A DNA stretch of 64,000 nucleotides from Phoronis australis (lineage: Eukaryota > Animalia > Phoronida), in NCBI GenBank assembly GCA_002633005.1, contig NMRA01000008.1, forward strand, positions 1,328,584-1,392,583, in the 5' to 3' direction. The notes beneath the pieces are model-generated. The model was given only the letters and a program-made list of their open reading frames with translations. It did no database searches and was not told the origin of the DNA. Made by a program: the position numbers and the translations under genes. Position 1 is the stretch's first letter, and each line of letters begins with the position of its first letter. Positions 14,201-54,494 of this stretch are shown piece after piece.

Positions 14201-16393
14201 TTGAGTGAAAATGTATCTGTGGAAAAGATGTGTTACACGTACCTTCAGCAGTACTAAATTCTTTTGAGCACACGTTTTCGAAGAGTTGATCTCTCGAAGA
14301 CTTTTCTGTCGACGCAACTCGGCAAAAATAACGGTCACTGCGGTAAAGTTGTGCGGGACCTTGTAACAGCAGGGTGGTGCCTTACCCTGTTTTGTGTGCG
14401 GGCGTTCCTAGTTTGCTCAAATCCGGCACTGAACCCACGTATGCATCATTAGATGATTTGCTTTGACTTCAAATCCTAACTCCTTAGTGGCCGTGAAACC
14501 CCGGGGCAAGTGCAGTTAAGACGACCCTGTAGTTTAATGTTCACAGTTTCTAACTTAGGAGAAAACTGTCAAATCTGGGTTCGTCCCTTAAATGAGAAAT
14601 GGCGTCTTATTGCGATCCATCGATCATAACTTTACGTCTGAATATTTTGAAATTGGTCGCGGGTGACCACTCAATCTTTTCATAAAGTTTTGTGTCGAAA
14701 TTACGACTTTAAAATTTATGAACGTAGCCGGAAATTCAGGTAGAACAGGTCTCACAAAATACTGCAATATGCTGACCACACTGTATTAAGTCTAGATGAA
14801 TCTAATGACTCTCTGGATCTTCTGTCTGGTTGAAACCAAAGATGTAAAAAATTTATCTGAGTGGATATTCTACGAAACCTAATGACACATGATTGGTGAA
14901 AGGAAAGAAAACTGACCAAAAAGTTACATTTCTCTAGTCTTGGTTTAACTCGACTCACGAGGAGAACAAATTGACGGAAGTTGAGCTAACTTTTTGTTCA
15001 TGGTCCAAGCGGTCTTTAACCACGTAGAGGGCAAATCAACAATAGTTCATGCATGCTAGCTAATTTAATTCATCTCTTAGAAGGATTGCTTATGTCCATC
15101 ACAGTCAATGACTCAAAACTTAGAAGAAATGTTCTGCAAATTAAGTTTTTAATGAAAGGCTCGGGTTCACACCAGGCGAATCCCAAGATATCCATTTGTG
15201 CAAGCTTTAGGCTAGGGAATACTAAGAATTCGACCATCGTCATGCAGCAAACACCGAGTTAAAATGAAAACTCATCTCCTATCTCAAAGACGTTATTTTC
15301 ACAGAGAGGGCGAAGAAATTTCTAGCTGGCGATCATCAAATCCTGTTCCAATATTGGATTTCAAAATTTTGTAATATCAAGTCACGTGAGTCTGTCGTCG
15401 CGAGGGACATCCGCACTCCCACACAAGTTAACGATAGAAATAAACAAACAGGTGCGTTAACACGGACACGTTTAATGATGGTGATAATCAAATTTACGAC
15501 TTTCAAATCGGAACAATTCCTCGACCCCGATGAACAGCCATGCTGATAAAATATGTCAACGAACGATGCGGAAATTACAAGAATGAAACCATGTCCAGTT
15601 TTAGTAGTCACCGCACACAAATAATTCAATGGCTTACAGTACGACTATTTAACCATTCAATACGCTATTATTATTGTTTGGCTGACAGTATCACTGTCGT
15701 TGCCTGTCTTATATTTCTTTTCAGACTTCTTCGCAATGTACATGGGATATGACGTCACTAGAAACAACAGTACCAATGGCGCAACGTTAAATCAGTTTAC
15801 TGTTGATATTACGGATGCATTAGATCAATTATTTGTTTAAACTGCCAAATGATCATTATACCACAGTCAAAAGATAATGATATTGGCGGCTACAGTGGCA
15901 ACGCCAACCCTAAACCTTGAGTGACTGAATTTACAGTTCTGTCGGGAAATGATCCGCAAACCCCCCTACCTCTTTCCATCTGAATTGAGTGAGGGTAAGG
16001 GAAAATGTTACTCGTAGCAAAAACATTTGGGTGTGGTTATCAAAAGTTAAATCTGAAATTTCCTATTTGTCTTTATACAAAGAATTTGCGATCCCCCAAC
16101 TTAGAATAAGAACAAATCATCCAACTACAAGAGAAGTCAAGGCAATTTCAACAGTGAGTTCCGTTGCATGTATGTATTACTTCCTAACCCAAACCGCAGA
16201 GCGTTGCCTCAATACAAGGACAAGACGAACCAGTCAGAGAGTCATTAACAGGCTTCTTGTGGCGGGGAAAACTTAAGCGTCCACGGAACTATGCTATTCT
16301 CGGTGCTCAGTTGTAACAGATTCAACAAGAGAAGTGTAATTCCAGAAGTAGTGTAGAGAATAAACGTCTGGAAACGAAGCCTAAAAACAATCA

Positions 16394-16701
16394 CAGGGGC
16401 GGTAGGCGCCTGTGCCGTGCATGTGCCCCGTGGGTACTTGATCATACGGTATTTTGATGAGGCGAACGTGCCGCTGCCAAACCGACCAGAATACCCAATA
16501 CTTTTGAGAGACTGCACCTTCCACATTTCATAGAGAGTAAGCACTGAGGTACCTAATTTGTGAGCTCATTCGGGAGCGGTAGGAGCGGGTGGCGGGCACG
16601 TGCCCCCTGTGTATAGTTGACCTCACGGTATTTGGAAACGGCGCGCGTGCCGCTGGATAGCCAAGATGCCCAACATTTTTGACAGACTGCACCCCCCACT
16701 G
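16394..16701. repeat. Two diverged direct copies of a ~130-bp GC-rich MITE-like unit
   Basis: 16394-16524 and 16571-16701 share GCGGTAGG..GCA(T/C)GTGCCCC..ACGGTATTT..CGTGCCGCTG..CCCAA..TTTTGA.AGACTGCACC. Confidence 0.6.
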
Positions 16702-18171
16702 AGGGTAATATCGGGGAATGACGAATAGTCCTTTCATAGCTTTTATGCCAACACCTTTTGGGGCCGGTGTTTAAGTTGAATAAACGACCCTCCTTCAACT
16801 GATTCGTTTTAGTACAGCCAAAAGATGACCAAGGCAAACGTGAAACCGCCCTCTGCTGTACATGCACGCAGGTCTGTGGCAAAGTGAATGGAGCAAGATG
16901 CAAATCAAGAGGAAAACCTTTTCATGAGAGACTTCATCAGCAAGGGGCACACTTTCGTTGGAATATGAGACCGCTAACATTTGCCTCTCCCCCCCCCTCT
17001 CCTCGTGGCCGTAACAATTCGCACCGTCAGGAGCGAAATCGTGGTCACCTGGGCAGTGTGCGAAATGAATTTAGTTAAACGCGGTGGCTTGGCGGCATGA
17101 GAGAATTGGAAAGTTCACAAAGTTTGTCGATGAAAAACTCTCTTGCGCAGACTGATTTTAAATCATCACTCCAGTGACACTCAATAATGTCAAATGTGGC
17201 GGAGGGGTAATAATTATAGAGACTTCTTAGTTCAGACACTGACGGTTAGTTCTTATGTAATAAATTATCTTTAGCTTGCTTGATATTTCGACGACAAGCC
17301 ATATGAACCCAGCTGTACAATTAGTTCACTATCTTGTGATCGAGTTACACAGTTCGCCTTATCAAAATACATTCTATCGTGGGCAAAGCACGCTATAGTC
17401 AGGCCCGGTATTTCATGATTAAAGATTATTATTCCCGTGAGATGGGGCGGTCTTGCTTAGTAGTTATGCCCTATAATTAGGCTCACGTTCTTCTACTTAC
17501 AAATGTGCCCGGCAGAACGTTGAAAAGGAATCTTATTCAACAGACAAAAACAAACTGGAATATGCTCAAAGTAATTATAGCCATTGAGGATAACTAGAAC
17601 AGGAACTAACGTTTTTATTGTTTTGAACTCTCACTAATGTAAAATAAGAATATAATACTGAACTGAGACTACGAACAAGACAGGCTACAGTTCATCATGT
17701 CTAGTGAAACAAAATACGCATTAGTAGTATATGCGTACAGAGTACTAATATATAAAATGTACCGTTGTGTAGATCTTTTCGTGACCTCTTATTATAATCG
17801 ACTGGCGGGAAATGACAATTAGGGCACGCAAGGTCTCCTTTATTGCTTAAACTTTGACCCCCTTGAACTTTGCAACCACGTGGATAATGAAGATATTTCT
17901 AAGGACAGACTTTCGATTGCCCAATTGAATTCTGGTTTCAATCATTCAGATCAAATATCCCGACCATCGCCGATGATAGGCTGAGGTATCTTGAGCGACG
18001 AAAGAACAAAGGAAATTTTAGGCTGACGAATGACTTATAGAATACGAAGAGCATGGGACCCGTCGGGAAATTGAGCACAACTATGAGGCTAACTTTGAAA
18101 TCTATGGAAATTCTAAATTCCCTAGGCTGCAAATATATGTAACTAAAAATGTTGATTTGCAAGACAAAGTG

Positions 18172-18177
18172 TATAAA
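18172..18177 (+). promoter_or_regulatory. TATA box of the secreted cytokine-like gene
   Basis: gTATAAATa about 95 bp upstream of the ATG at 18267 (context gaaccATGc). Confidence 0.6.
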
Positions 18178-18266
18178 TACTGAAACAGACCTGCAGTTTT
18201 CATATTGTAACTCACAACAGAGAATTTTTCATAAACACAACACTGAGGAGATCGACTTCGAGAACC

Positions 18267-21200
18267 ATGCATATCGCTCGTAAGTACTGATGCCTATTTT
18301 TTCTAGTCCACGGCTTAAGGAGAGCAATTTGAAATGATTTCAAACTTATCTGAAACGATTGACAGTGGTTTCGCAATTACAAAAATCTACGAGTTTTGTT
18401 AAAAAAATGAGTCGGCTTTATTGTTGTTTTATAATTTATCAAGGGAATCGAAAATGTGAAGTCGTCAACTTCAAATTGTACAGTGTAGAGGACACTGAAA
18501 CCTCAAAAGCAATTAACGAAGGAACTCCACTCGGTCGACGTTGCTATCTTGTGCAACGCCGTCTTAGAAAATCATTTTGCTCGCGTTTTTGGGGCAGTGA
18601 ACCCATTGTTTTTTTGAATTTTTAATAATGCGAGTTGACGTTTCTAAATACACGATGAGTGCTCCTATTTTTTTTTGCTTGAACTGTTCACGATGTGAAC
18701 ACTTTACTTGGGCACTTTCATATGATCTTACCTACGTACTTACTTTAAGTTCAATAGTAAGGTCTGCCTCCGCATATTTAATTTACTTCGGTTTGAACGA
18801 GGATTTCGTGACGTTTATTGTAATTAACATTGTGTGATTTCGACGTTTGCAAGGCATTTTTCAAGTTATTCCTTAATAGCAATAATCAGTGCCGGCAGTC
18901 ATTTAGGGGTCCCGAGGCAACAACCCTTCAATAGATTTTACGGTCCGGCACTAATTATGTGAAATTTAAATGCCATCGGGTTCGGACTCAGCAAACCTTT
19001 GTGCCCCCAATGCTTTTTACCGTCCCGAGTTCTGAGAACAGTTATTATATTTCAGTGCTAGTAACCGTCTCATGTCTGAGTGCGATGTGTAGATCGCTGC
19101 CATTGACAGCTCACGGTACGGGAAACATCGCAACAACGCTAAACGTTATCACCAATACTACGGCATTCACAAAAATGACACCTCCGTCAACAGTCGCAAC
19201 GAACGACAAAGTTACTGCCAGTATTGCCGCTATCACACGGGCTACATTAACGACCCAGCCAAGCGAAGCCAACGGTGCTCAAAACGATCCCCTGCCTGAC
19301 AGTCAAAATAGCGTAGACACAGCTGGTACCATTGAAACGTTGCATGGTATCAAAAGGCAAGCCGACGCATTGTTAACACTTACCAGGGACATGCTGAACG
19401 AATACGTAAGTTACGTCATTATTATTACTCTAATTAAAACAGATAGTACTTCATGCTCGTGAACAAGGTTTTGTTCAGGCATACTGTTACAGCACTGATA
19501 TAGGAAAACTGCTAGAAAACGTCATGGACCTTGCGCTCCTACCGTACAAAAATCCGTTTGTCACTGATTTATAAAAAGAAGAGAGAAACAATACGCTCGT
19601 GTATTACCAAACCACTAACTGAAAAAGATCACAAAGGTGTACATTAACTTGAAGAAAATGGCCTTTAGGTGCCGACTTTCTCATGGAGAAGAAAACTGGT
19701 TTTGCAAAGGTCATCGGCTTTCAAGGAAAATACAGATTATTTCTTCTATTTCTCGGAATTTTGAGTTAACTGACATGCCGTTCTTTGCAGGCCTACTAGT
19801 CGCCATTTTGCATGCACTTTTTTCTACGTGAAAGATGAAAAAATTAAATTTTACCCGAGTCGTTTTTTGAGTTTGTCTCCATCGTTCGCAAAAATTAAAA
19901 CTAAATACAAACGATCTTAATTTATTACTAGCAAGTAGCAGTTAACAACTCACAAGAACGCAGACGATAGATTTCTTCGAAATATAAAAGCAAGCCAAAA
20001 AACTTCCCCGACCTTTTTCATTCCGGATGTCAAGTGATCTCGTGCTTTTGAAAAATTGGAGAGCGAAAATTCTCTCCAGATTTTATGAAATTAGTGCATG
20101 TTGCGACTAAATGTTTACTCACGCCTATAAGAACCAAATTATAAATTATAAAAATGATCAGGAAGTTGCTGCGTCAATCATGAGCGGGTTACTTTGACCC
20201 CTATCTGTCGAAATATCTCTTCACCAAGATACATCCTAGGCTAAGTCACGCCTTGCATTTACTTACTTCAGTATCAAAATAAGACGATCCACCTATACTA
20301 TCCACGTATTTCCTCACATAATGTACCCATCTGCGTACTGAGCTGAGATTATGGTCGCATAGGATCGAGAACAAACGAAACGTTTGCATCGAAGCTATTG
20401 GCGGCTACAAGAATGTAGGTCGCAAAACGTCAAGTTTTGCCAACTGACGTCATTTCGTTATAAACATAACTAGCTGGTAGAGGTACGACAAACGTTGTAA
20501 CACTCTGTACGATTTTCAGAGTGAAGAAATTTATGGTGACGACTTGAGCAATATAATGGACTACCATTGTCCCTCACATTGTACCGACGGCTGTTCAGGG
20601 GGTTGTCAAACCTGCATTATGCTAATCTGCCTCGACTTTTCTGAGGAGGTAAGTAAACCGTTATTTGTACATCCGTTCTCTTGATTTTTTTAGTGTTTCC
20701 ATTTCGTAGCAAAAATATTTATTTATAAAGTGTTGAGTTGTTGCGTTTTTTAGATAGATGGATAGATAGATTATTTATTTGTAATTGAAATGTATATCGT
20801 TTGTACACATTACAATACTTCGTAACAATACATTACGTAATAGCTTTACACAGTCGCAATTTTCTGTCTTTAGTAAGACCACATAAAAGGATTGTCTCTT
20901 GGTAAGGGTAATTATTTAATGCCTTTAAAAACTGGCGGACATTCCCAGTGTCTGTAAAGTCCCGGATATTCCTGGCAAAACACTAAACCCTACATCGTTC
21001 AAAACTTATCAATGGAGTACAAAGTTGTGTTTATATCTGTGAAATACCTAAGTGGGTCGTGCAGTCAAATCTTTGAAGTAAAAATTATCTTGTTGATTTG
21101 TTTGGGTTTAATCATAAAAATTCTTTGAATCGTATTTTTGGACAAGGTTTTGAATTATCGAAATCTGAAATCCGAATCTGACATTTCTGAGATATGATGT

Positions 21201-23066
21201 TCCAACATTAGCAATAACGTGGTGTAGATGCATAATTGATGTGAAATGCTGTCTCAGATTTTGCTTTAAAAAGCTACATTACGTAGAATACATCTTTCGC
21301 TATCCTTCTTGCTAAAAAGAACAATTACAAATTAAAAATAATTCCATTTCTCTCATTTTATGTCATTTTAAAACATAGAAGTAACAAGGTTGATCGAGAA
21401 ACATTGAAACATGATGTACGTTTCGCAAATTACACTCAGCCCTGCTTTTAAAGGGACATTGTCCTTTTACGTCCGAAAAACGCACCTTCGAGACTATTGT
21501 TGCATGGAATAGACATTTTGGAGTTGTTAGCTTTGACCAGAGGTATAAAGCAATGAAACCCATAAATCCGTTGTTTCTTGTGATTGTATTACAAGCGCCA
21601 ATTTTCAGATTTGATTCGTTTTTTCAAAAAATCTTATGCATAACTAAGTCGGATTTATTTAAATAAGAGTGGGAGTGATAAGTGAATTGTGATTTTATTA
21701 CAAATCGCCAACTCTCTACGTTGCCTGCCAGGCATTCGTTGATATTTCTCTGACTTTACCAGATAATACAATTAGAATTCGCCGCCATTTGCTGAGCGCG
21801 ATTCAGATCAGCAAGCAGAGCGTTTCGATGCGACGCGAGAGTTTCAAGTTGGATTTCGCTTTGGGATTGACTGAGATAGGCAGCAATGATTGATCTCGCC
21901 GGGTCAATAGGCTATTAATACGTCTTATTGGTTCGGCGGAACCAGCGAAGTGCAGCCATGCTTTGCCAAAAAGCCGCAAAACAGTCGCTGGATAGGACAT
22001 TACTAACTGCATTTGAATATTTTTTTCATTTCAAATAACAAGTAACGTAATTTGAAAAAAATAATTTTGTGTTGAGTACTCGCCATTTTTGCGTTCTTAG
22101 AACAGTAGAAGCACGGTAGTTAAATGCAGGGGAGGTAATCGTGATCTTTCAAATTGGCGCGCTTTCGAGAAGGTCAATTTTTAAAATGATGCTGTTTGAA
22201 CTAAAATAACTTTTTTCTCTTATTTCATAGAAAACCCCATAGGCATCAAATTAAAACATGAATGAAATGTGAACTGTGTAACTTTTTGTGTAGAAATTAA
22301 AGCGCTAAAATTTGAAATAATCAAAATGTAGAAACAAATAATTACGCCGCGGCGTAAGAAAATCAGTAAACCGGTGAATTGGCGACAGAACTAAGTTTAG
22401 CAACCCATCAAAGACAATAAATATCGTTGCCTGCTAACATTTGCGAGTTCAAGGTTGCAATACCCAGTTCCAATTTGTACGAGTAGGTTAATTTTCTTTC
22501 GGCGTTTTGAGCCGCATCAAAAACTGTGGTTGTGGATATTTGTCACTCCCGAGGCGATGGCATGTGGACACGATATCTGCGAATTTAAATCGAGAATATA
22601 CTATTACAGGACATTGCTTCGACCACCAATAAATTTATTATAAGAGAAACATTAAGCACAAAGCTGGAACACTGATCATAAGGGGTTTCTCAACTAGTCT
22701 ATTTCTTGTTTTTAGTATGGCACCATGGTAATCCAAGCAAGCACGTACCTTGAGTCGCTACTCCCTCTGGTGGGAGAGTTGACAAGAATTGACATCATCA
22801 GAAGTAGAATGCCGAACCTCCGCACATACGCCATTTTTCTAGAGGACTTTCTGTGGACCATTAATAGTATTGTCAAACAACCTGTCTCCTCAGGTTGGAT
22901 TATCAGCGCTAAGGACTCGGTTCAGAGGCTACAAAGCATACTTCCTGTGACGAAACCTCACAGATTTGTTGGGTTGTTGAAGTCGGTTTCCAGAGTGTCA
23001 CAAGTAGTAAGCGACCAGACGAGTCGTCAGATGAGTAATAATCTTTTCCCACAGCCTTCCAATTAA
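18267..23066 (+). CDS. Secreted ~280-aa orphan protein, putative long-chain four-helix-bundle cytokine (IL-6/LIF/CNTF-like); 4 exons
   Basis: Exons 18267-18279, 19056-19405, 20520-20648 and 22716-23066, all GT-AG (three GTAAGT donors), intron phases 1,0,0. They join into an uninterrupted 843-nt ORF. Order of parts: signal peptide MHIALLVTVSCLSAMCRS|LP, Thr-rich spacer, amphipathic segment TIETLHGIKRQADALLTLTRDMLNEY, Cys-rich loop, three further Leu-rich amphipathic segments. TATAAA at 18172. The gene model is well supported; the cytokine identity is inferred. Confidence 0.8.
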
Positions 23067-23103
23067 CAAGACGTTTAAGATCAACGGTTATGCATAATAT
23101 TGA

Positions 23104-23186
23104 ATTTATAGTTATCTATTTTTACACGCAAGTTTACTTATTTATTGTCACCATCTTTTTCTGTAATCAGCATTTCTGATTAAGAA
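23104..23186 (+). promoter_or_regulatory. AU-rich element and hairpin in 3'UTR of the cytokine-like gene
   Basis: ATTTA at 23104, nonamer TTATTTATT at 23138-23146, and hairpin TAATCAG-cattt-CTGATTA at 23164-23182, starting about 40 nt after the stop codon. Confidence 0.45.
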
Positions 23187-24749
23187 TATCTATTATCGTT
23201 GATTCATACATGCATGCATATAACGCCGAATTCAAACGAGTTGGATTACCGATCCTCTGCCACGAATTTTGACTTTCTTGAAACAAAAATCACTTGCAGT
23301 GCCTTAACCAACTTCGTCCAAAGACTCAAACGAGACAGTCAGTGGCGTTGTCTAAAATGGTTTTGAACAATTCCCAATCCTCTAGAGGTCCCCCTTGGTA
23401 TAAACGTTTCAAAATTTTCCATCCAAAATTTCTAAATTTTATTTCCTTTTTTTATTCCTCATCAGGTAATTGAAACTAATGTTTGTTCTGCACTGAATTA
23501 GGTAACGAAATTGACCAATCGTAAAGTTGCTGAGTGGTTCTGTCAAGTGTCAGTTCGACCCTGGGCCTGTGGTCTGCCTCGTTGAATAAAAACTCGCTAA
23601 TCCCATTACTGTAAATGGTGGCCTTATGAATGTTGTGCAGTTTAAATGGGTGATCGATAGTTCCCAGTGAAGCATAATACGTTCAAGTGCATTGCTGAAA
23701 AGTATCAATATTTTATTTTTGTTTTCATATTGTTTAAACATATACTTATGTATTTTTACTGCGTTTTTATAGTTAATGTAAACTGAGGTATCATTGTCAC
23801 AATGCAACAGTTTCTTACTAAAAAGAAAACCCAGCCATGTCACTATGGTTTTGCCAAAATCATTCACAAAGTTTGTGAAGAAAGAGTAACTATTATATAG
23901 TTCCGTATCGTTAGTGATCCCACGAATCGTGCATGTATTAACTAGAATATAGATTTTGTATTGCAGAGTAGCTAATAGTTTGTATTTTATGGTATAGAAA
24001 TGTGTATCACTGCTTACTTTACAAAATAAAAACAACATCGTTTTGATCAGAACGACTTATTGCTTTTGTCCAGTCTCTGAGATGCGAATCGTGTGTGAGC
24101 AAGGGGCTTGACTAGGGGTCAAACCTTATGCGCTGTCGGGAGTTCATTCTCACCGATAGATGGCTACCTGGTCGACTTATTTTCTCGAACGTCTCTTCGT
24201 CGGCGTCACGGTAGTCAGCACCAATAAAGACAAATTTTTATTCTGGTTAAGCCTGTGACTCTAAACGTCCTTAGCGCGGCAGTATCGCCGGGCTTTAACA
24301 TTTTTCGTTAACTAAAACTTCAAAATTGAGCCTATAAAATGTGCTCGTGGTAACTAAAACCAAACATCTGTACTCTTCAGCACGAGTTATTTGATACAAG
24401 TGCCGTGTATCCCGAGAGCAATGCACAGGAGCGAAGCTTAGGCGCACTCGCCTATCGAAACAGTTTCGGAACAATTTTCTTTGACTCATCATATAGTGGA
24501 GTCGTATACAGGCGCATGGGGGCCAGACCTTGCCAAGGTTGAGCGGCTGTTTAAAAATGCCCATGCCCAAAAAAGAACACTTCACGTGTTGTGCTGGTGT
24601 ATTGGCTGACCCAGGCCACAGTAAATGCGTATCGCCGACTCCCGTTTACTACCGTAAGCCAACACTCAGTGCGTGTACCAGTCGCCACCCGACTAGAGCG
24701 ACGTCTTTCGGGAAAACCAAATTTCTTTGGTGTTGGAGGTAACCGGTAG

Positions 24750-24782
24750 TGACGTCATTGCGTGGCGCTTGTGCGCATATGC
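24750..24782 (+). promoter_or_regulatory. WDR54 proximal promoter motifs (palindromic CRE; NRF1-like TGCGCAT)
   Basis: TGACGTCA at 24750-24757 and gtgcgcatatg about 60-90 bp upstream of the ATG. Confidence 0.35.
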
Positions 24783-24840
24783 CGATTATTGACATTGGTT
24801 TCCTTGGGCGCTTTGCTTTTGGGAGAAGCACACAATTACG

Positions 24841-27800
24841 ATGTTTCACAAAAAGAAATCTATTACCATGAAGTCTAGCGCTTCGGCGTTATGCAACAAT
24901 CTGAGTATTCTGCAGAATAGAGATAAAACGATAACTCATTTCGCAGTAGTGCACAAGTCAGTTGTGAATCTCATCAGTACTGATTCGGAAGGGATTGCCA
25001 ACCAGAAACAAGTCAGCTCCAAGGAGCCCTCAATCGGCCACCACAGTTCGTCGATCATCTTACAGGTGATTTTCAGATCGTGCCTTAAAATTAAAACAAA
25101 TATGTCGACCAGAATGGTCTGTCGACCAGGATGGTCTGTCGACCAGAATGGTCTGTCGACCAGAATGGTCTGTCGACCAGAATGGTTTTGAGAGTTTGCT
25201 TCAATTACAAGCGTGCCAAACATTCGCGTCTTTGGTAGTCAGTAAGCCGTGGTGCAAAGCTACAAGAGCTAGGCTAAGTAGCCTAACACTGTTTCAAACT
25301 GGCCCCAATAGAGATGGAGCCATCCCACAGGCTCTCCATACACTGGAAGCTTTTTGCCGAATTATGCGTCACTGTGGTTAAACCATCAAAGTCGTGTTGC
25401 TTTATTAAAATATCAGTTACAAAGACACCGTAAAGGAGGCCATTGATATTTCTTTAACTCTTCCTAGCTTGAACAAATATTCCCGCAATCGGACGAATCC
25501 TTCGTTCAATTGCCCTAATCGACAACTGGCTATTTTTACACTGCTCGCGTCAGAGGATGTGACTTCACATCACTCGTCACCAAAATCATGATTGTTAACG
25601 TAGCCATTTTGCTTTGAAAAGGTATTGGATAGAATGAAGACTTACGGGATAGTATCCTAGAAGTCTATTTTGGAAAATAGCTAATGGTTAATGAAGGAAT
25701 GCAAGGGAAATGAGCCAGACTTTTTCTCAGAGTTGGAAACATTTAAAGACAATGATAGTCTTCAAAGGTACACTTTCCTTGTATGCTCAAAGCGTACTTA
25801 ATGGTGACTTTTGGCTAGTTATTCCAAGTTGAGCTGTAATTTGCCGAAAAGCTTCTGGTGTACAAAATCATTGAGATAATGCCACAAGGCTTAGAGAATA
25901 ACTTTATACAGTAGAACTGACTAGACTTCCTTCATCTTCTGATGGACATTGACTATACTCCTACCAGAGAAGTTGACAGCTACTGATTTCTGGCCCCAAA
26001 CTTATAAACACAGTTTGAAGCACATAACGGGCCCACAAAACACAGGTTACGCTCCCATGGACACAGCTCCCAAATCGCAAACATGACTTACTGGCTACCT
26101 AACATGGACATGAACTCTGGGTGTGTCACCTTGAACACAATTTTTGACGAGTTGGTTATCTGTGTAAAAATTCCACCAGCATTCGCCTCATTTAGCCTGG
26201 CCTCATTTTTCACTTTGTAAAATTTTTTCTCGGCTCTGTACTGATAAATTCTCGACTTTTTTCTTGCACCCCAAAACATTGAAACTGGTGACCTTAGAAT
26301 TTTGAAAGGTGGGTTGACTAGAGATCCCAGTTTTTGGAAGTGTAGGGCAAACACTAAGTCTTTGGTTGATGTTTTAGCCTGTATTTTGAGAAAGCTGTTT
26401 TTCCATATGGTAATTAGGACCTAAAACTTTTAATTGTGTTGCAGGCTAAGTTTGTTGAATTATCGCAACGATCGATTCTGGTGATCACTTCACAGAAGGG
26501 GATTCAGGTGAGAAACACTGTGTTGCCTGGTTGTCAAAGAATGACTTAGCTTTTTGTTGTTTCATAGGGAAAGCAAAGGTTTTCGGCATTACCGAAATGC
26601 TAAGAATAAAAGTCTTAGGGGACACTGGATTTCTCAACCTTAATTACTTACAATCTGGACTTTCATGATGAAAGTGACTTTAAGGAGAATGCCACCCAAA
26701 AAACAACCTATTTTGTATCAATTTAGATCGAGTAGTTCTACTCGATAACGGCACGTTCGGTTGCGTTACCTGACACCTGACGGCAGACGGAGTTGTTGAA
26801 ATTATCCAATGACGTCATTGGTTTCACACGCAGTCTGTGCAGCAGTTCACAGCACGGGTTACTGGTGTCAGCGTATCGCTTGAATTCATCGTTTCACAAC
26901 AATAAATCATCCAACTTCGATGTAAAACCCTTAGAAGTACACCGAGTACTTATAAAAACGTGTTGTTTTATTTCGCTGTAGTTACGGATTTATTGGTATT
27001 TGGACACACTGTAGCCTACAAAGTTTGGTAGGCCAATTTACCAAGGTCTGTAGCAGGAGTTTGGGGTCTGTTCGGAGATAAATTCGAAGTATTCTTCCGT
27101 GAAATACAGACAGGAGAACCTAGATCTGTGTTGTTTAGACTTGTGATTTTTTGAGTTCTAAACACACAAATTGCTTGTTATCCCGGCCAGTGGCTCGGAA
27201 CCTGATCAGGCCCGTCTCGGCCGCCAGGACTGGCACGAACATAAATCAGCTCGAGTTGGAAACTAAACCTCCAGTCACAAAAAGTCTATAATAGTGAGCC
27301 AAAGAAATAATGTGCACGTAATTATTTATGTGAATTAGCCACGAAACTGAAAATCTACTTACTTGTCGGGGGCTGCGAAGTCGGGTTCCCCTTCCACAGA
27401 CCATCATGGCAAAGGTTGTACAATAACAATGATTTGAATAAATGTATTTGTATTTCTAAATAAAGTTTCCCCTAACATGTGACCGTAGCATATAAAATCG
27501 AGTTATTGTTTCGCAACAGCTTTCTGTCAGCAAACACTGAATTAGCATGTGCTCACACGGCCTCGGTGCCTGGTCAATTACCTTTATTGCTGGCATCAAA
27601 AGCCGGTAATGCAGTGGTTTATTCATTGCTGGTTTCTCAACATTCACGAATACTGCAAAGGCATTACAAATGGTAGCAACTCGCCCGGCGCCAATCCCGA
27701 CTTAGTCAAGAGCTCATCCGACGAAGACTTCACAGGTCTGATCGTAAGGTTTCACCATCTATCAGTTCGAACCAGAATACTCTGATCAAGAAATACTAGA

Positions 27801-30800
27801 GAGGCGCCGTGAACATGCGCAGGCAATGGAACGTATAGATAGTTCTTTGGTAAGCCGGAATTCGTCAGAGAAATCAGTCGACGAAATGCCGGCCACAGAC
27901 ACGGAGATGTGTCACGACCTCATACTTGCTATTAACAGCATACCTTTCATTCTTCACTACCGCGAGCCACTTCCTAAGCATTTCGGGCTCTCGAGGAAGT
28001 CGAAAAAACGATATACCCACTTTCTTCGCAGCTTCATAGTTCGGACAAGCGGGAACGATGCACCACGATATAGCCACATTCACTCTGCAGACGAACCACT
28101 GGCGGCGCTGTGTCGTTTCTCACCTTCCCTTAGGTTAACGTAACACCTCTCGCCAAGGTGAGGTTGACTGTTTAAGAGGTAATGTGTATATAGACTGATT
28201 AAGACGGTAAAAAGACTAATTAAATCGGGTGGCATTCTCCTTTAAGACTGACTTGATACAGAAATTTTGTCTTAAACTCCCACTTCGCAAATAAAGGTTT
28301 AGCCCAGTAATGATGAGTGTATTCTCAGAGAATTTGGACCTCTATTCTTTATGGTCCATATGGGTAACTGTAACTTAAGTCCGAAAATGTCTCTTTTAAA
28401 CAACCAGAAGCTCTAAATGTCTAAGCATAGGTGCCACCAAAACCAGTTTGCTGTCTCCTTTAAGGGTCTACTACACATGTGGTGACAATCTGAACACATT
28501 AGAGACTCGTCCGTTTCATGGCAGCTTGTACTTAGTCAATTCATACGTGTACAAGTTCCGCTGACATCAAGAGGCCTGTTTATCAGGAAATCTGATCTAA
28601 GGTCCTATTGTGTGGAGTAGAGAAATTATCACATTAGTGGTGCCAGTGTCATCATGGCAATAAAACACTGGCCGAAATAAGTTTATACATCTTGAACTGA
28701 AACTGGTGATCTTTATCTGTTGAATTCCTCATGAAAAGTTATGTTCATTTGCACCGGAAGAAATGATTGTATTAAAAATAGTCAAAATAGAGGCGATAGG
28801 TATCCGTTCTGTGGTGCCTGTTGATGGATGGTTTTGGTAATTCTTTCAACTGCTTGCGATTCGTGATGCTGAACAAAAGATTGTAGGAATACTGGAATAC
28901 TAAACAATGGACTTGGTTGACATTTGGACTTAGCCACGATTTGGAAACCGCTGTCATCTGGAGTTGAAGCCAAACAAGAGGTTACAGGAAATGGCAGGAG
29001 GTGCAGAAACATTGGTCTGCTTAAATGGAATTAAAGCTAGTGTGTTGTTGTCCATCAAAGATTAGTTCCTTTTGTTTCATCGATGTGTCATACGTTGAAA
29101 AGTAGCAAATCACATTGTTGTGGTTATCTACCAATCAATGCTTAGTTTTTCGGTTTCAGGTCAGTGTCACTGATAAACTTGAGAAATGGAAATTGTTTTC
29201 TACTTACTCCTTTTAGGGAATATGTTTGATGCCATGAGCTACTTGGTTGTATGCCTCGAAGCATGGCACAGTGTTCTCCTTACATGAACTATGTTTTTCA
29301 CCACGTTTGGAAATCTTGAATCTTGTTTGAAAATCTTGATTTTTTCTTTTAAGTCAAATGAAATCATGTTCCTAATATTGCACTTTTTATTGTTTATAGG
29401 ATTAGCAGTAAAATGCTAGTGATGTGCCCAACAAGTAGAAATAATGCATAATCTGTACTTACTAGTAGTTGTTTTTTGTGAATTATTTGATAGGAAGATT
29501 CCTATGGGAGAAGGTGATATGCAGTTTGCACCTTGTTCGAATTTTTGTCCTGGGAGAACCCTGAAATTGACATGTCCATTTGCATGGCACTTGCCTTGCT
29601 TACTCTATAAACAGGATTTAGTTTGAGTTTTGATTTTTTGTTTAAAAATATTGCTATTGCTTAATCTCTCCAAAAACCCCAAAATAAACTGATGACTGAG
29701 TGACTTTGGTGTTCTGATGTGTTAACCATTACAAATACCCCCTCCCCTCTGTACAGTTTCAACTCCAGACGAAAGTGGTTTCCACGATGAGATAACAACC
29801 TAGCCTACTGTGAAGCATTCTTGAGGTCTTTTGTTAGAGCTCAGCTCACTAATCATAAAATAGTTGTCACTTCCCTTGGTCAACAAAACAGAAACGATGA
29901 CATCATTTTGGGCTTGTTATGCACCCACATATTTATATGTGGACGCATTATATTGTATTTCTTCTGAAAAAAAATGGCGCTACCTTAACTTTTCATGGGG
30001 AATCCAATTTCAGAAGTCAAACAGGTCGAAAAATCACCAATTTTAATCCGTGATAGTTAAATGTATTTCAGCCAGTATTCTGTAGCTCCGAAGTCGTCGC
30101 TAATGCGGTAATTGCCCTGTTCCAAAACTAAGATAGATCACTGTCCCTGATGTCAAAGGATTTTGGCTACTGCAATCTGTGTACAAATCTATTGCCCAAT
30201 ATATATACCCATGGCCGCGGTATGGGCCAAGTTTCTAATGGGCATGGATACCAAACCAAGAAATTTCTTGCAGTCTCATTGATTTTACCTAATGTTAAAA
30301 TTACTGTTTTGTTACCCTAAAGTGGTTTACTTTTGTTTGTTTAAGATGTTTGAGTCTGATGGGGCTACAATCTTGTACTGGCACTCTTTGGCCGATTCTA
30401 ACAGCGCTGGAGGTGAGTGGGTGAAAAAACCATCAAGATTTTGTGACAAAAGAAACAAAAAAGGTGGATTTTGCCCCACTTCTGTTGGCATCACATGATG
30501 CTAACCTGTTACAGCACAGCAAGAATCCACCTGATATTTGTAAGACATAATGGCGGTTTTCTACGTATGGGGCTGGTTATGACACGAGACAGCAATTTCG
30601 TCACTCTTCCTGTGATCAGATTGAAAAGTTGCGAATGAGCTATTTTGTGGTCAGTCTGCTGAAAACTAAATGTACTGAAGGTTTCTTTGTTTACAAGTCG
30701 CAGCATTTTGACTTTTGAGAAGCTATATCTTGTTACGCAGTGGTTATGAGATTTTTGACATGCACCTTGGGAGTGCCACTGAATCAAGTTGGACATTGTG

Positions 30801-40720: not shown

Positions 40721-42305
40721 TAATTCAGCATATGTCTGTTTTTGTGTTCACTGGTGGTCTGGTCCACATTCATAGTTCCACGTCTAATTGTTAATTTACA
40801 CGAGTTACTAATATAGAAAAGAAGGTTTATGTTTGCGAAATGTCAGTCATACACACTGCATTATGAATAGAAATGAAACGTGAAAATTTCAGCAGAATTC
40901 AAATGAAAAACAAAATCCGATCTTGTGTAATGTTTTTGATTAAAAACATTAATTTTCTGCATTTTACAAAAGATAAAAAACTATCACCATTTCATTTGCT
41001 CTAATGTTCAGTATCAATTTGCTATAATCTTAGTCCTGAATACCTTGTAACATGCTCTTGTTGTAAATCACTAGAGATGGATATTGTGTGCCAAATCAAA
41101 AATGATTTCCAGCACAAATGATAAGATCATATAATAAGAAGAAAAGAGCTGCTCAACTTGTTGCCTCTAACTACTACGATTTGAAAACACGATTATATGG
41201 AATGATATATATGCAAATTATCCGTTGTTCAGATCACAACAATACTTTACACTAGGTGACTTTTGTATAAGTGAGGCATCTGTATGTATCACTGTGCCAA
41301 TATCCTAGTTGAGGTACACATGGCTATTTGTGAAACATTCGTGTTAAAGTGGGGACTGAGACAAGAAAACGCACAGACAAGAGCATATCGTGTATTGTGC
41401 TTGACAATGTACAGCATTTTATACATAGAGTAGCTCAGTGATTTGAGTTCAGGACTCCCTGTTGTACAATTGGTCTTATTTTGTTTCTTATCATGTCAAG
41501 AATTGTACAATGAAACTTGCCTTAACTCAAAATCCAACTTTGCTGGTGGTTTTGTAATTGGCCCAGTTGTGTTGCACACCCAGCAGAATTAATGAAGAAC
41601 ATAATATTAAAACGTTAAAAGTCACATTTCTTGTCCAATTTTCAAAATTATCAAACCTAATCACGTTTTTTGCTTTTCCCAAACTATTCAAATATGCCAC
41701 TTACAAACTTTCAAAACAAAAATTTAAGAATACCATTATCGCCGCCATGTTTACGGTGGTCTCATTATCTAGAGAACGATAACATCAGCAACCTGAGGCG
41801 CTTTAATTAACCACAACAGCATTGGCAGATTCTGTGGGGTGCAAACCGGTCAAGTTGTCCAGTCTTGACCGGTTAGGGTGTCAAAGTGGGATTCTTTTCA
41901 TGCTCAAATTAGAACTGATTTCTGGGTTTGGCAAATTCTGATAGTTCAATTTTTCTTCCAACCAGGCATGTCAAATTTCAGTTCACAGCGTAACCTGAAA
42001 CTTTATGAACTTGTCTCAAGAAATAACCGACTCAGTTCTTTCCAAGACCGAAATCACCTCCAGTTTGACTTAGAAACAATTTGACAACAGTTTTATAATG
42101 ATTAGTGGCCTCATTCAAACTTGTTGTTTTGACAGAAAGCACGGGTTCATTGCCGCTTTAAGAAAAATATTTACAAACGCATTATTTTGAATATATTTGC
42201 GCATAGAGACTAAGTGAAACATGTGGCACATTGTAAATAAATTACCAGGTACTCCACTATCAAAAACAATAAAAACATAAAATAAACTACTATTTACATC
42301 AAGCA

Positions 42306-45300
42306 CTAAAGTTCTTGTTTTTCTAACACTTTTTTAACTATTCCCCTGGCTTTATTTGCCATAGAATCAAAGTAATCGTCACCATCTTCGTCTGTCAGAG
42401 ACAGCTCATCGTATTCACTTTCTAAATGCCTCAGCCACCCTACACTTTGCTGGAAGTCCTTTTGACACGGTGACGCCACGAGATCCATTGCATTTAGCAC
42501 CTTCTCACGACTATCGTGTACTGTAATTTCTAACAGGGGAGGTAATATCCTACACCATCCATGCTCCAGAAGGGCATCCAACAACGGTACTCTGAAAGAA
42601 ATCATTTGGTTCAACTCAATAAATGCATTTCAATCGACTTAGACAAACTTTTACATCAGACTAGCACAGACATAGCTAGAAAGTCTTCTTGCCTCACAAA
42701 CCGCATGGGAATTCTCACTAAATAAGGTTCCGTGTCCTAAACTCAATTCTTTACTCATTCACGCACTTGTTTGCAACACAAGAAATGCCGTTTGTAAGAA
42801 CCGTGGTTTATAAAAAAGAAATCTGATCCGAAGAAAATAATTGTACTGGCAGATTAAGAAAGTAACATTCATGACCTAAGAACACTTGACAAAGAGAATG
42901 TCTGTGCTGCTCGAGAGTGAAAACTGACTACCAATGTAGCAAAAATATTGTCAATTTCTATTCAATTACTATAACAAAAACTCGTCTCCAGTGCCTGGTT
43001 GCATGAAACAGTTCTAAATTCCCTACATCTTTGCATATCTGTGTCTTTCTTTACTCACAGATGTAATCTTTTTTCAACTATTTCGTCTTTATTACGCCTC
43101 CTTTTTAACTAAATAAAAGACATTTTCAATCAAATAATAATTAAAAACTGACCCCTGAGATCAATGAAAAAATAGGGACTTAGTCCTTAAATTAGGGACT
43201 TTGCTCAAAAAGATCCCAATATATTTTCCATAACATGAAGCGTTCAATGCAGTTTACTCTCCATTTGTATCAAAGCCAAACGTCTACTTAGTAAAGAAAC
43301 TAACATTAGAAATGACGATCGGCGTTTTCACCAGTCCACAAATATGCAGTAAATTTAGAGAACTTAGTTGAGTCCCTATTTGAGACTGTTTCATGCAACT
43401 GGGCACAGTTATCAAAAAGCGCTTTCTAAAACGCATCTGTTTAACCCATAGAACAGTGTCGTCTACATAAACAAGCTAGTATGTAAAGAAGAGTCTGAAT
43501 AAAGTCGCAGGACCAGCAAATCATGAAACTTACTTTTTATATTGCTTGAATTTCTCCACTTCCACTGAGTTATTCTCATCTAGATGCTTTTCTGTCAAAC
43601 GCTGAAAATACATCCAATTACCAATTATTCACATCTCATTTAGCAATGAGTAAATTACTTTCCGACAGGAGTTAGGACAAGCCTCTTTGCACACTGGAGA
43701 CAACCATCCAAACACAATCAATGCAAACCCATCCATTGGACTTGCAAGGCAGTCCATGTTATGAAGAGTCTTTTAAAAATAACAATATGGACAAACCCAG
43801 AACTCACGAGACATTATATTTGGAATGGAAACGACACAAAGGAAATTCAAACTAAGCATTAAAAAAAATTGTATAAAAATGACTAACTATACTACTCCAA
43901 ATACACGTACGATGACAACTTTAGAGTGCATCCCTTGAATTTTCCCTCTACAGTGTATACCCTATTTCCCTTACCTGTTCATTAAGGAGATCGTTCATGA
44001 GAGACACCACCTTGATATGGAGCGCCTCGGCACCAGGAATGCTAAAGAGAGATAGTAGAGAGGAGACCCCGCCCAACTGTAGGAACCTGTACTGTGCGTG
44101 CGGGAAGTGACGGATAGTGGAAGAGATTGCGTAGATGACTCGGCTCCGCAGTTTGATGGATTTCTCTGTGTTCACCATGTGAATGAGCTGTTGCAGTAAA
44201 CCTGCCTCCAACGCTTTGATTTGCACTTTAGGATTGCTGTAAACGGAAACAACGCAACAGTGTTGTGGCGATTCTTTGATTATTTCTAATGAACAAATGC
44301 TCACACCGGACTCGTCTCCTTCAATCACAGATCTAGACATTTTCTGCATCCAGACCACCACTACTCAATCACATCGCACACTGTTGAGAAAGTGTTGCGG
44401 CAATTTTCGGAGCACACCTTGCAGCATTGGCTGGTAAAAATTTTCATTGAAACATTGTTGTTACTCAATTCGGAACAACTGACATGTTGAAATTGTGTTG
44501 GCAGTCACACCCTGTTTTGTCTTGCAACGGGAATAATATTCAGATTCTAACTGACAGCAACGCACACCAATTTTTACAATGTCTGTGATTAAAACAACAA
44601 ACTCCATGTCAGTGAAACTACCATACCAAGCTCAGAGGAAAGTAAAAATTATTAGAGAACACAAATTCAGACATGCCGCACAAATTTCAAATCAAAATTG
44701 AAACAAAAGTGCGACTTACAGGTCCTTTAAATCTACTTAAAATATGTGAGCCAATTGAAACACAGTAATTATGTTTTTAAATGATCGATGAAAATAGAAT
44801 CACAAATGCTGTTTGTTGTAGAAAACAAATTAAGAACCTTAATCATGTCTGTCACCAGTAAACAAAAGCGAAATTCTTCAGCTTTACAACAAGAGTCAAA
44901 AGTTTGATTTATACCTGACAAAACTTAACAGTTACAGTTTTTCCTTAGACTTAAAACAAAGTTTCAATAAAAGCTGAACTCGAGACAAAAACAAAATGTG
45001 AGCGATACACTGGCTCGACGTTACATTTTGGAGTAACTTAAAAAGTACAAGATCGCAGCCACCAGTAACAACCAGCTAGTCTCCAGGCTCCAGTAGTTTC
45101 AAGTAGTCTTTAAAACATTGAGACTATCCTCAATTTTCATCCTACCTCTGAGTAGCTGCTCCCAAAACAAACGCAGCTCCACTCCGTATCTCCTCATGGC
45201 TGGTGTCATTGAGACTCTTCGACATTTCAACCAGTCCACCCAGGTCAGCAAAATAAACACCATTATCAACCTGGTAACAAAATAGCCACGTAGTGAGTAA

Positions 45301-48300
45301 AGAACTAGTCACAAAATCCCTAAACACACTCGTTTATGGTTTGGAAAATTATGAGACCAATGCTGACAATTGTGTATGACCTTAAGAAAAAATATAATTG
45401 TGGCCAGGATTAGTGTTGAATGGAACAGACATTTTGAAGTTGTTAGAGCTACAAAACAGTAACACCTGCTGTTTTTGCAACTTTGTTACAAATTGCCAAT
45501 TCACGCCACTGTCTGTCAGACATTCACTGAAATCAAAGCTTGGACCAGTTAAATATGCTAAAATACTCAGTTATCTACTGGGTAGGATTTAGCTCAGACA
45601 GTAGAGCATTTGGATGCAACGTGAGCGTTTCGGGTTTGATTATGCGGTGATGTTGATCTCAGAAAAAAAGATTTTCTTCTCAATAATGTCACATTAATCC
45701 GCTAAGTACCAATTATTACACAACCACTGAAACTTCTAATCTCTGACTGACTAAAACAGGGTACGATAACTTCTGATATACTGTAATATTGACCAAGGTG
45801 GCTATGAAATATCACTTTTCATTTATGCTACCCAAACATCAGATGTCAGATCTGACCAATCAGAGTACTACAGGAAAGCAGCAAAAAAACAAGCAATATC
45901 TCATAACACACAAAATATCTGAGGATTGAAAAACCAGTGCTCGTGCAATAAAACAAATGTATACCAGCCTCTTGGCTATATCAGATCATATGGACCTCAG
46001 GACATCGAACATTTCTCCCCATTGGTCCAAATGAAAAGATATCACTCACGATTGGTCGATACTTGAAAACTACATCAATCTGAAGACAGATGCTATTTCA
46101 CATATTAACTAATCTCTGAAATAACTGGTGTTGGCATTGATCATATTAAACAAAGTTAAAGCTTGTGAATATTGGAAAGAAGTCCAACAAATTTACACAT
46201 TCTAGCTTTTACCAACATGTAAACCCAGACAGATCTTGCATCAGGTAAGACACCTGTAGTTGTACCTTCCCAAACAAGCACCTGAGCTTACACGCTGACA
46301 CACAGAACACACCAAAAGTAATCACAAAAACTGATCTGCTATTCCGTCACGACTGCCGGACACAAGTGCAAATCATAATATTAGTAGTGATTCGGCATGA
46401 CTAAAAGTGATAGAGAATTTACTAGAAAGTGAACATATTAAAAAAAAATAGTTCCATAATTGCAGAGTGGCAACACACTGCCAGACATTTTAACAACAAA
46501 CAGAATTAGCTGCCACTAAGTTGCAACAGCATTTTTCTAATGAGGCCAGAAGGTGCTAATTATCAAGGCTCCTCGCCTGAATAGACTGATGGTAGGAAGC
46601 AGTTCAGCACTATCGACATGTCAGTGATCTAACAGTAACATGTGACTACCTGAATACATACATTTCTACAGGTAGGACTGTTAGCCCACTGACGCAGCAT
46701 GGTAAATCTAAAATTACATATTACTTTTGCCCCGTACTGTCTACGGTTGTCAGTAACCCCATCTAGTATTTATGTTACCTGGTGAACAAGAAATTCTATG
46801 TCATCAAGTAGTTCGACTCTGGTTGCCACGGTTGCATTAACGGACTTGAACTTGTCAACCAGCTCGGTGAGAATTTCGGCATCAGTTTTTATGTCAGCCT
46901 CCATTTTTCGCATGTCTTCCTTAAGTTCTTCGTATGAGCGGAACTTCTTCTTCAGAGCTTCAGCCTTCACCTGAAAACAGTCAGGATATCATGACTACCA
47001 GCAGAATACTACCCTGCTAAACCAACACGTGAGCTTATTAAAGTGCCTATCAGTAGAAAAAGTCTCCTGTATTAAACTGCCTAGCAGTAGGCGATTCTCA
47101 TGGGAGGCTATTTTCAGATGGAACAGTTCATCATTTCAAATATATCACAAAAGCACTCACAGCCCTGGGGGGAATTTTACAGTCAAAGTTAAGTTTGGTG
47201 TTGTCTACTTCGGTGTCTTTTTGTTGATGCACTGCCAGGAACAAAGGAATTAACTTAAGAAGTGTTCAATACTAACTTCTTATTAACATAAAAATTTGTT
47301 TTACTGAATGTGCATCATTTGATGATGAGTTTTGGTTACACATGCTTGTGCTGAAATTATAAAAGTTTTAACGAAAACGAAACAACAAATGGTTTCAACA
47401 ATAATTTCATTGTACGATTATTACAATTTTAAACCCTAATAGTTTATTAATTAATTAATTAAATAGCATTGAATGACATACAATACACCTCAAATATAAT
47501 AGTACAAAATTCCGCTCGCACTCAGCCACCACGGCAGGAATTTTGCTAGCGATCAATAGCCATGAAGAGGGAATTCCTAGTAATTCTGTCCAATTGCTTT
47601 TTTTAAATAGCGCAGTGGGGCCCAGTGCGATTTAAACCCACGGCCTTGAGAACAGGAGGCAGAAAGTCAACCCAATATGGCACACTGTTTCCTCCCAATT
47701 ATTTTTGATGTGAATTGCGTTCAACTAGAAATAGTATACAAAGTACAAACCTCTTCATCCTGGACATCGTCTTTGTTGGCTTTGAAATTCTTTAAAGCTT
47801 CCTTCAACTGATTGACCGTGAAATCTTTCCTGTCAGCATTAACCATGCCTATACAAGACAAGGGTGTGGGATACAGTCAATACCAATAACTACACAGTAC
47901 ATCAATATGAGACCTGCTGCAGGCCAGGCAAAAAGCCCTTGAAAAACTGCAGGCAATTTTGCCTTATAAATTTGTCGATTTTTGGCAAGAAGAATTTTCG
48001 TCAACTTTCTAGATATTTCTTATCAAGTTAATGTAATTTCACAACTGTCTCATCAAAAGTGAATCTCAAAGAAAATGCTGTATGAATACATTAACATTCT
48101 TTAAAGTGAAATGCAATCTGTTTTTGATGTAACGCTTAGTAAAAATACAGATCCCCTGTTATCTAGGAGATGCTATCATTTAATTACCGTTCTTCTGGTG
48201 AGTATTTACCACCCATGGAACAATAGAATGTAGCACGGATGGCTTAGTAAAAGACGTTCGTCTTGGTTCTACATTCACGTCCGTTGAGCAAACACAGTGT

Positions 48301-53789: not shown

Positions 53790-54494
53790 CTCACACTCAG
53801 CTGCAGTAAAGGCTAAAATATCTGAAAAGGAAATGAAATGAGATTGGTGCCAAATCAGTGAGGGTAATTCCAGGCTACATAGTGCAGACCACATTCTGTA
53901 GGTATTCTGTCCTACGATAGCTTCTGAATTCCATTTCACTGCCTGCTTCAAGCTTCATCTCATATTTCTTGCAGGACACTTCAGCTATGTTTGGATTCAG
54001 AGCTGATGTTTCAGTTAATTTAAGACACACGAAAACCAGCGTTCCGTGGCATTTCTAGTGCAGTGGGCAACCATGCTCAAATTTTGAACCCTATGCTTAA
54101 TTTCTCAATTTTTGATTGGTTGTCAGGTCAGTCATGACAGTATGGTGTCTAAAACTATGAGTCAAGTGGTATCAAACTGTAAAAAGTCATTATTATGACT
54201 TTATTCAATTTACTGGCAGTGCTAACCCCACTGACTGCAGTTTGAATTAAATTTTACCATTTTATGGACATTATTGCCTAAATATTAGTTAATTATATAC
54301 AACAAATCTAAGAAAACACAGAGCATGGTGGTCTTCACTATCGGATTTAGCTGAACATTGCAAATGACACCATGACAGCATTCTGTCACTTCTTGGTAAA
54401 ACAACCCTGTACTGCACTGCATTAAACTTATCCTGTAGACAGTGTCATCGCCTCTACTTAGCAGTGAAGATGGTGGAGCTCCCATAGGCCATTC

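Follow-up and report, generated by a model that had tools for sequence, protein, structure and literature searches.

A four-exon orphan gene of Phoronis australis encodes a predicted secreted helical protein, a candidate class I cytokine

We analyzed a 64,000-nucleotide (nt) stretch of the genome of the phoronid Phoronis australis (assembly GCA_002633005.1, contig NMRA01000008.1, positions 1,328,584 to 1,392,583 of the forward strand; hereafter the window, to which all coordinates refer), where an earlier note had proposed a gene for a long-chain helical cytokine, hidden across four exons between positions 18267 and 23066. According to that note, a 13-nt first coding exon and a 129-nt third exon link two orphan open reading frames (ORFs), and the exon coordinates, the splice sites, and null sequences all agree with this structure: the four joined exons (Table 1) make up an open frame of 280 amino acids (aa). 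The three introns (776, 1114, and 2067 nt) are all of the GT-AG type, and their phases are 1,0,0, as claimed. All three donors read GTAAGT, a hexamer that does not occur elsewhere on the plus strand within 18000-23100, and the acceptors, all TTT(C/T)AG, are three of the six such sites on that strand in the same interval. The GC content is 45-49% in the exons versus 35-38% in the introns. When the longest spliced frame was sought, the actual stretch yielded 280 aa with three introns, a length that none of the sequences from a third-order Markov null reached, either with strict signals (0 of 1000, maximum 179 aa) or with relaxed ones (0 of 300, maximum 202 aa); among 33 N-free tiles of 5.2 kilobases (kb) covering the window, the best spliced frame elsewhere spans 213 aa, inside the SIL1 gene. 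The four-exon gene model holds, far beyond chance, and the locus is a real, unannotated-looking orphan gene.

Neither of the two small exons is forced by the frame because it stays open without exon 1, given the alternative ATG at 19010, or without exon 3, which can be skipped. The start context of the ATG at 19010 is poorer; the ATG of exon 1 has an A at position -3 and is preceded by the TATA box candidate that the earlier note had reported. No paralogue of the gene was detected in the window with tblastn, and a search of the interval 15000-30000 against Rfam returned no matches.

Table 1. Features of the candidate gene and of its predicted product
Feature	Positions	Strand	Remarks
TATA box candidate TATAAATA	18172..18179	+	95 nt 5' of ATG; from sequence only
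Exon 1, coding	18267..18279	+	13 nt; start of predicted signal peptide; followed by phase 1 intron; GTAAGT donor
Alternative in-frame ATG, inside intron 1	19010..19012	+	291-aa frame if exon 1 is left out; position -3 is C
Exon 2	19056..19405	+	350 nt; rest of signal peptide, Ser/Thr-rich linker, helix A
Predicted helix A	19328..19405	+	residues 96-121; hydrophobic moment p 0.018
Possible extension of exon 3 at its 5' side, or intron 2 end left unspliced	20481..20519	+	in-frame, 13 codons; weak upstream acceptor; adds seventh Cys
Exon 3	20520..20648	+	129 nt, 43 aa; acidic, six-cysteine segment, predicted AB loop
Exon 4	22716..23066	+	351 nt including stop, 116 aa; predicted helices B, C, short CD-loop helix, D
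Predicted helix B	22716..22781	+	residues 165-186
Predicted helix C	22815..22880	+	residues 198-219
Predicted short CD-loop helix	22905..22940	+	residues 228-239; moment p 0.11
Predicted helix D	22956..23039	+	residues 245-272; Phe at start, no FXXK
Probable 3' untranslated region (3'UTR)	23067..24030	+	AATAAA at 23585 and 24025; ATTTA not enriched

The encoded protein is probably secreted, with a predicted signal peptide extending to about residue 18: hydropathy reaches 1.56 at residues 1-19 and does not exceed 0.91 in any other 19-residue window, and there is no transmembrane segment. Residues 20-92 consist of 29% Ser and Thr, are modeled with a predicted local distance difference test score (pLDDT) below 50, and probably form a disordered linker that has a single sequon for N-glycosylation (residue 38). 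The cysteines of the mature chain, six in all, are encoded in exon 3 (residues 138-158), with none in exon 4. Structures were predicted for single-exon pieces. AlphaFold2, run on a single sequence, places a helix at residues 93-120, after the linker, with a pLDDT of 73-83 over most of its length. Exon 4 folded alone is all-helical at a mean pLDDT of 45.5, with helices at its own residues 8-23, 25-31, 35-54, 65-75, and 81-110, so that helices B and C, the CD minihelix, and helix D appear at the expected places. The hydrophobic moments of helices A, B, C, and D exceed those of shuffled sequences (p 0.014-0.033), with the best angle at 100-104 degrees, and the segments are separated by 43, about 6-11, and 25 residues, respectively. 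Co-folding of helix A and exon 4 as two chains gave a score of 0.02, which is evidence neither way. Together, the hydrophobic N-terminus, the predicted helices, and their spacing support the earlier proposal of a mostly helical secreted protein with long-short-long spacing.

Expression was examined in four RNA runs bearing the same species label, with about 5.1 billion letters from three raw runs. Exon reads came from one run (X3) alone, with about 150 letters at approximately 20494-20644, covering most of exon 3, and about 143 letters at 22714-22856, covering the first 141 nt of exon 4; both are at least 99% alike to the locus. In both cases, the first mate lies on the minus strand, the pattern expected of plus-strand RNA with most stranded libraries. 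By bin arithmetic, the two reads delimit a fragment of 296 nt if intron 3 is removed versus 2363 nt if it is not, and they probably represent one exon 3-exon 4 fragment with intron 3 spliced, the pairing being reconstructed from tables. In the runs examined, there was no RNA read from exons 1 and 2. Three intronic segments (20267-20403, 21176-21209, and 21516-21739) partly match RNA reads as well as foreign contigs and are probably dispersed repeats. CRE and C/EBP promoter motifs were not found, and there is one STAT-like site versus 1.15 expected.

In the searches for relatives, exon 4 served as the query in large protein sets, and exons 2 and 3 were queries in Pfam and PDB. Several matches were rejected: the single one among 1.84 billion representatives (P0004) is a repeat artefact, namely, a tandem repeat of 53 residues in which no stretch passed; the atlas match of exon 4 to Translin, at 0.78-0.81, left nothing once Translin was skipped; and one of 153 pattern matches in metagenome contigs (L001), 28 residues long and outside the ORFs listed on that strand of the contig, was put down to chance. 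Among 13 viral contigs, there was no match to exon 4. The resemblance between helix D and human IL-6 that had been suggested earlier found no backing in PDB, with no sequence retrieved at E-values up to 10. A Foldseek search, one of the checks proposed at the outset, gave no matches at an E-value of 0.001 with the model of exon 4 alone (pLDDT 45.5, helix A absent), and VIA-align with the same low-confidence model recovered generic bundles, with no cytokine among the 50 matches listed; both outcomes are compatible with the cytokine fold. Lamprey IL-6 is likewise described as missed by BLAST and found with a filter on length and signal peptide, both of which fit in the case of our candidate (PMC13081863).

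On balance, we lean towards the view that residues 93-272 form a long-chain bundle of up-up-down-down topology and that the protein is a secreted class I cytokine that binds a gp130/Domeless-type receptor and likely acts through JAK/STAT. Upon secretion, such a protein would lose about 18 residues through signal cleavage near residue 18; the linker would be O-glycosylated and could serve as an arm that tethers the protein or slows its clearance; three disulfides would close inside the AB loop; and helix A would pack on helices B, C, and D to produce the long-chain class I bundle. The predicted ligand would then use its A/C and A/D faces, like class I cytokines of vertebrates, to dimerize a gp130/Domeless-type receptor and activate JAK/STAT, with a possible role in immunity, injury, or development. 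The introns of the candidate gene lie in the signal peptide, directly after helix A, and directly before helix B, positions at which IL-6 and G-CSF have introns as well. In a four-helix spacing score, with ranges and helix limits chosen after the sequence had been viewed, the long-short-long layout scored 1.80, a value reached by none of 1000 shuffles, versus 1.35 for a short-long-short (ferritin-like) layout and 1.39 for all short loops. A bundle of up-up-down-down topology cannot do without long loops, and the CD loop of IL-6 is described as holding a short helix (PMC7378365). The phase pattern 1,0,0, previously offered as evidence of a cytokine, is indeed present but argues only weakly for one because phase 1 introns are overrepresented close to signal peptides and about half of all introns are in phase 0, the reported proportions being about 5:3:2 (PMC7259759).

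Apart from the choice of limits made with the sequence in view, several results weigh against a class I cytokine. The spacing score is not cytokine-specific: with SIL1, an unrelated helical-repeat protein, as a control, the highest value among 31 windows taken from two such proteins was 1.71, for SIL1 of Acanthaster. Helix B has the weakest moment of the four and contains one proline, and the start of helix D reads FVGL (residues 249-252), with no FXXK motif. To our knowledge, neither a six-cysteine AB loop nor a 75-residue linker is a feature of the vertebrate IL-6 family. Exon 4 matched none of 278 candidates among longer proteins, Pfam has no family for exons 2 and 4, and searches of PDB by sequence with single exons retrieved no cytokine; because no relative was found, there is neither an alignment nor a confident model. 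At the RNA level, no exon-exon joint reached the threshold of three reads, and no reads cross junctions 1-2 and 2-3. The exon 3 read begins about 26 nt 5' of the proposed acceptor, at approximately 20494, which implies that either intron 2 was still present or an in-frame acceptor at 20480, with a weak tract, was used, adding the 13 residues listed in Table 1. The 3'UTR, claimed to be AU-rich, contains 2 ATTTA motifs versus 2.4 expected in 23067-24030, that is, no enrichment of AU-rich elements, and no NF-kB, IRF, or AP-1 consensus was found in 16800-19055.

Of the alternatives, a lineage-specific secreted helical protein with another fold appears unlikely, albeit a serious contender; in this case, exon 4 would encode a small bundle of its own (B, C, the CD helix, and D), with a function in matrix, mucus, or metal binding for the linker rich in Thr and the exon rich in Cys. 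However, the matches of the exon 4 model carry little weight, given that the model has a pLDDT of 45 and lacks helix A; furthermore, an amphipathic helix of 26-28 residues such as helix A requires something to pack against, and of the three layouts compared, long-short-long gives the best fit. It is quite improbable that the protein has a helical cytokine fold but engages a different receptor, namely, a receptor tyrosine kinase (as do SCF, M-CSF, Flt3L, and IL-34), CRLF3, or a class II receptor, or is a hormone similar to growth hormone, prolactin, or leptin. In favor of this possibility, the same topology occurs in class III receptor tyrosine kinase ligands; nevertheless, helices of 22-28 residues over 177 residues fit the usual ranges of long-chain rather than short-chain cytokines. 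The topology is also described as common to class I and class II cytokines (PMC7378365), and the site III motif FXXK is missing (PMC9601804), both points in line with another receptor; on the other side, the phases are 1,0,0, not the 0-0-0-0 reported for interferons (10.64898/2026.05.30.728932), and a Domeless/gp130-like receptor is described as the class I receptor known in invertebrates (10.64898/2026.10.26.761873).

There is only a very slight chance that the exons are real but belong to a silent or decaying locus, or are joined in a different way. What speaks for this is that only two exon reads were found in about 5.1 billion letters from three RNA runs, that exons 1 and 3 can each be dropped in frame, and that there is no orthologue showing purifying selection, as opposed to the intact frame, the three perfect donors, the TATA box, and the raised GC content of the exons. 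Low resting expression is usual for inducible cytokines, which also argues against a silent locus. As for the extended version of the class I cytokine reading, it is possible, if somewhat short of probable, that the candidate stands for a previously unrecognized lineage of invertebrate cytokines of the long-chain class I type. Its members would have an AB loop knotted by disulfides between six cysteines and an N-terminal arm resembling a mucin, the candidate would be the natural ligand of the gp130/Domeless-like receptor of this animal, and its intron positions would go back to the ancestral gene that also gave rise to vertebrate IL-6 and G-CSF.

The candidate gene is followed by the WDR54 gene (24841 to about 37020, plus strand), whose ATG at 24841 is about 0.8 kb past the likely poly(A) signal of the candidate and whose exon 1 shows 54% identity to a Capitella protein. 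A GC-rich segment 5' of WDR54 (24295-24750, minus strand), with a stop-free minus-strand frame of 116 codons and no Pfam or Rfam match, may correspond to a transcript that diverges from a promoter shared with its neighbor. WDR54 intron 1 opens with a 17-nt tandem repeat in about five copies (25103-25187), and an intron of this gene harbors a 1.57-kb element (26678-28246) with 20-nt terminal inverted repeats that are 95% complementary, AGG...CCT ends, and TTTA/TTAA flanks. The minus strand of this element encodes a THAP domain (27877-28107, Pfam E-value 1.7e-12), and its features are consistent with a degraded Kolobok-type DNA transposon. The gene for the nucleotide exchange factor SIL1 (42300-53900, minus strand; 52% to Pecten) includes a pair of small exons that is repeated, one copy lying at 48806-49729 and the other at 50905-51828, with an offset of 2099 nt; an isolated N is present at 50722, and the repetition either arose by tandem duplication or is an artefact of the assembly. 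A nucleoplasmin-like gene (57207-62700, plus strand) with acidic tracts is arranged head to head with SIL1, and two of its exons match Pfam PF03066 at E-values of 0.06-0.09.

In a 2026 survey, IL-6 was detected in vertebrates alone and no IL-6-like ligand was found in most invertebrates, the receptor, JAK, and STAT being present in invertebrates all the same (PMC13203501). As ligands of Domeless, Unpaired 1-3 are known, together with two shrimp proteins, a C-type lectin and Vago4 (PMC13203501; 10.64898/2026.10.26.761873). We found no helical class I cytokine of a non-arthropod invertebrate in the literature, with most subscription papers and bioRxiv supplements outside the scope of the search. 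That the candidate is a new class I helical cytokine is plausible but unproven; as a named gene with exact exon limits, it allows the question of the missing ligand to be tested in a further lineage. It also illustrates how tiny exons and fast divergence keep genes of this kind from being annotated.

Among the known cytokines, the candidate resembles IL-6 (the Pfam family IL6, PF00489) and G-CSF, whose intron phases are 1,0,0,0, in the signal peptide split by an early intron, the long AB and CD loops, the short CD-loop helix, and the confinement of cysteines to the AB region. It differs from both in having four exons rather than five, with no intron between C and D, in the 75-residue Ser/Thr linker, and in the lack of any sequence match; where IL-6 conserves four cysteines, or two in hagfish and certain fish, the candidate has six, at residues 138-158, with a different spacing. 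The layout of IL-6 is given as five exons (PMC3271213), and with four exons and two introns in the domain, the candidate falls outside IL-6 by the exon criterion (PMC13081863). The synteny criterion for IL-6 is linkage to TOMM7 and the vertebrate IL-6 block, and the neighbors in the 64-kb window are WDR54, SIL1, and the nucleoplasmin-like gene. We do not file the candidate as IL-6 because it has four exons and six cysteines.

With LIF, OSM, CNTF, and CT-1, the candidate shares an aromatic residue at the start of helix D and a last exon that encodes helices B to D together, as in LIF; in contrast, it has one exon more than LIF and OSM, no cysteines in its C-terminal half, and no sequence match to this group. 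The FXXK motif at the start of helix D is reported to be kept in >95% of LIF, OSM, and CT-1 sequences (PMC9601804), and we do not place the candidate with these cytokines because its motif reads FVGL. Neither of the labels attached in the earlier note, IL-6 and LIF/CNTF, holds up when the number of exons, the pattern of cysteines, and the FXXK motif are considered. Unpaired 1-3 of Drosophila are secreted Domeless ligands with a low-complexity N-terminal extension, and the candidate is likewise an invertebrate protein, predicted to be secreted, with such an extension and a putative role as a JAK/STAT ligand; unlike them, it has no match in Pfam, the Unpaired model included if present in the library, and its neighbor genes are closest to those of annelids, molluscs, and echinoderms, not insects. 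From interferons (class II), with reported phases 0-0-0-0 (10.64898/2026.05.30.728932), it differs by its phases 1,0,0. Whereas lamprey and hagfish IL-6 and the lancelet interferon-like proteins come with confident models, synteny, and functional tests, and the candidate is known from its sequence and a low-confidence prediction, all of these were found only through gene structure and predicted fold while being invisible to BLAST (PMC13081863; 10.64898/2026.05.30.728932).
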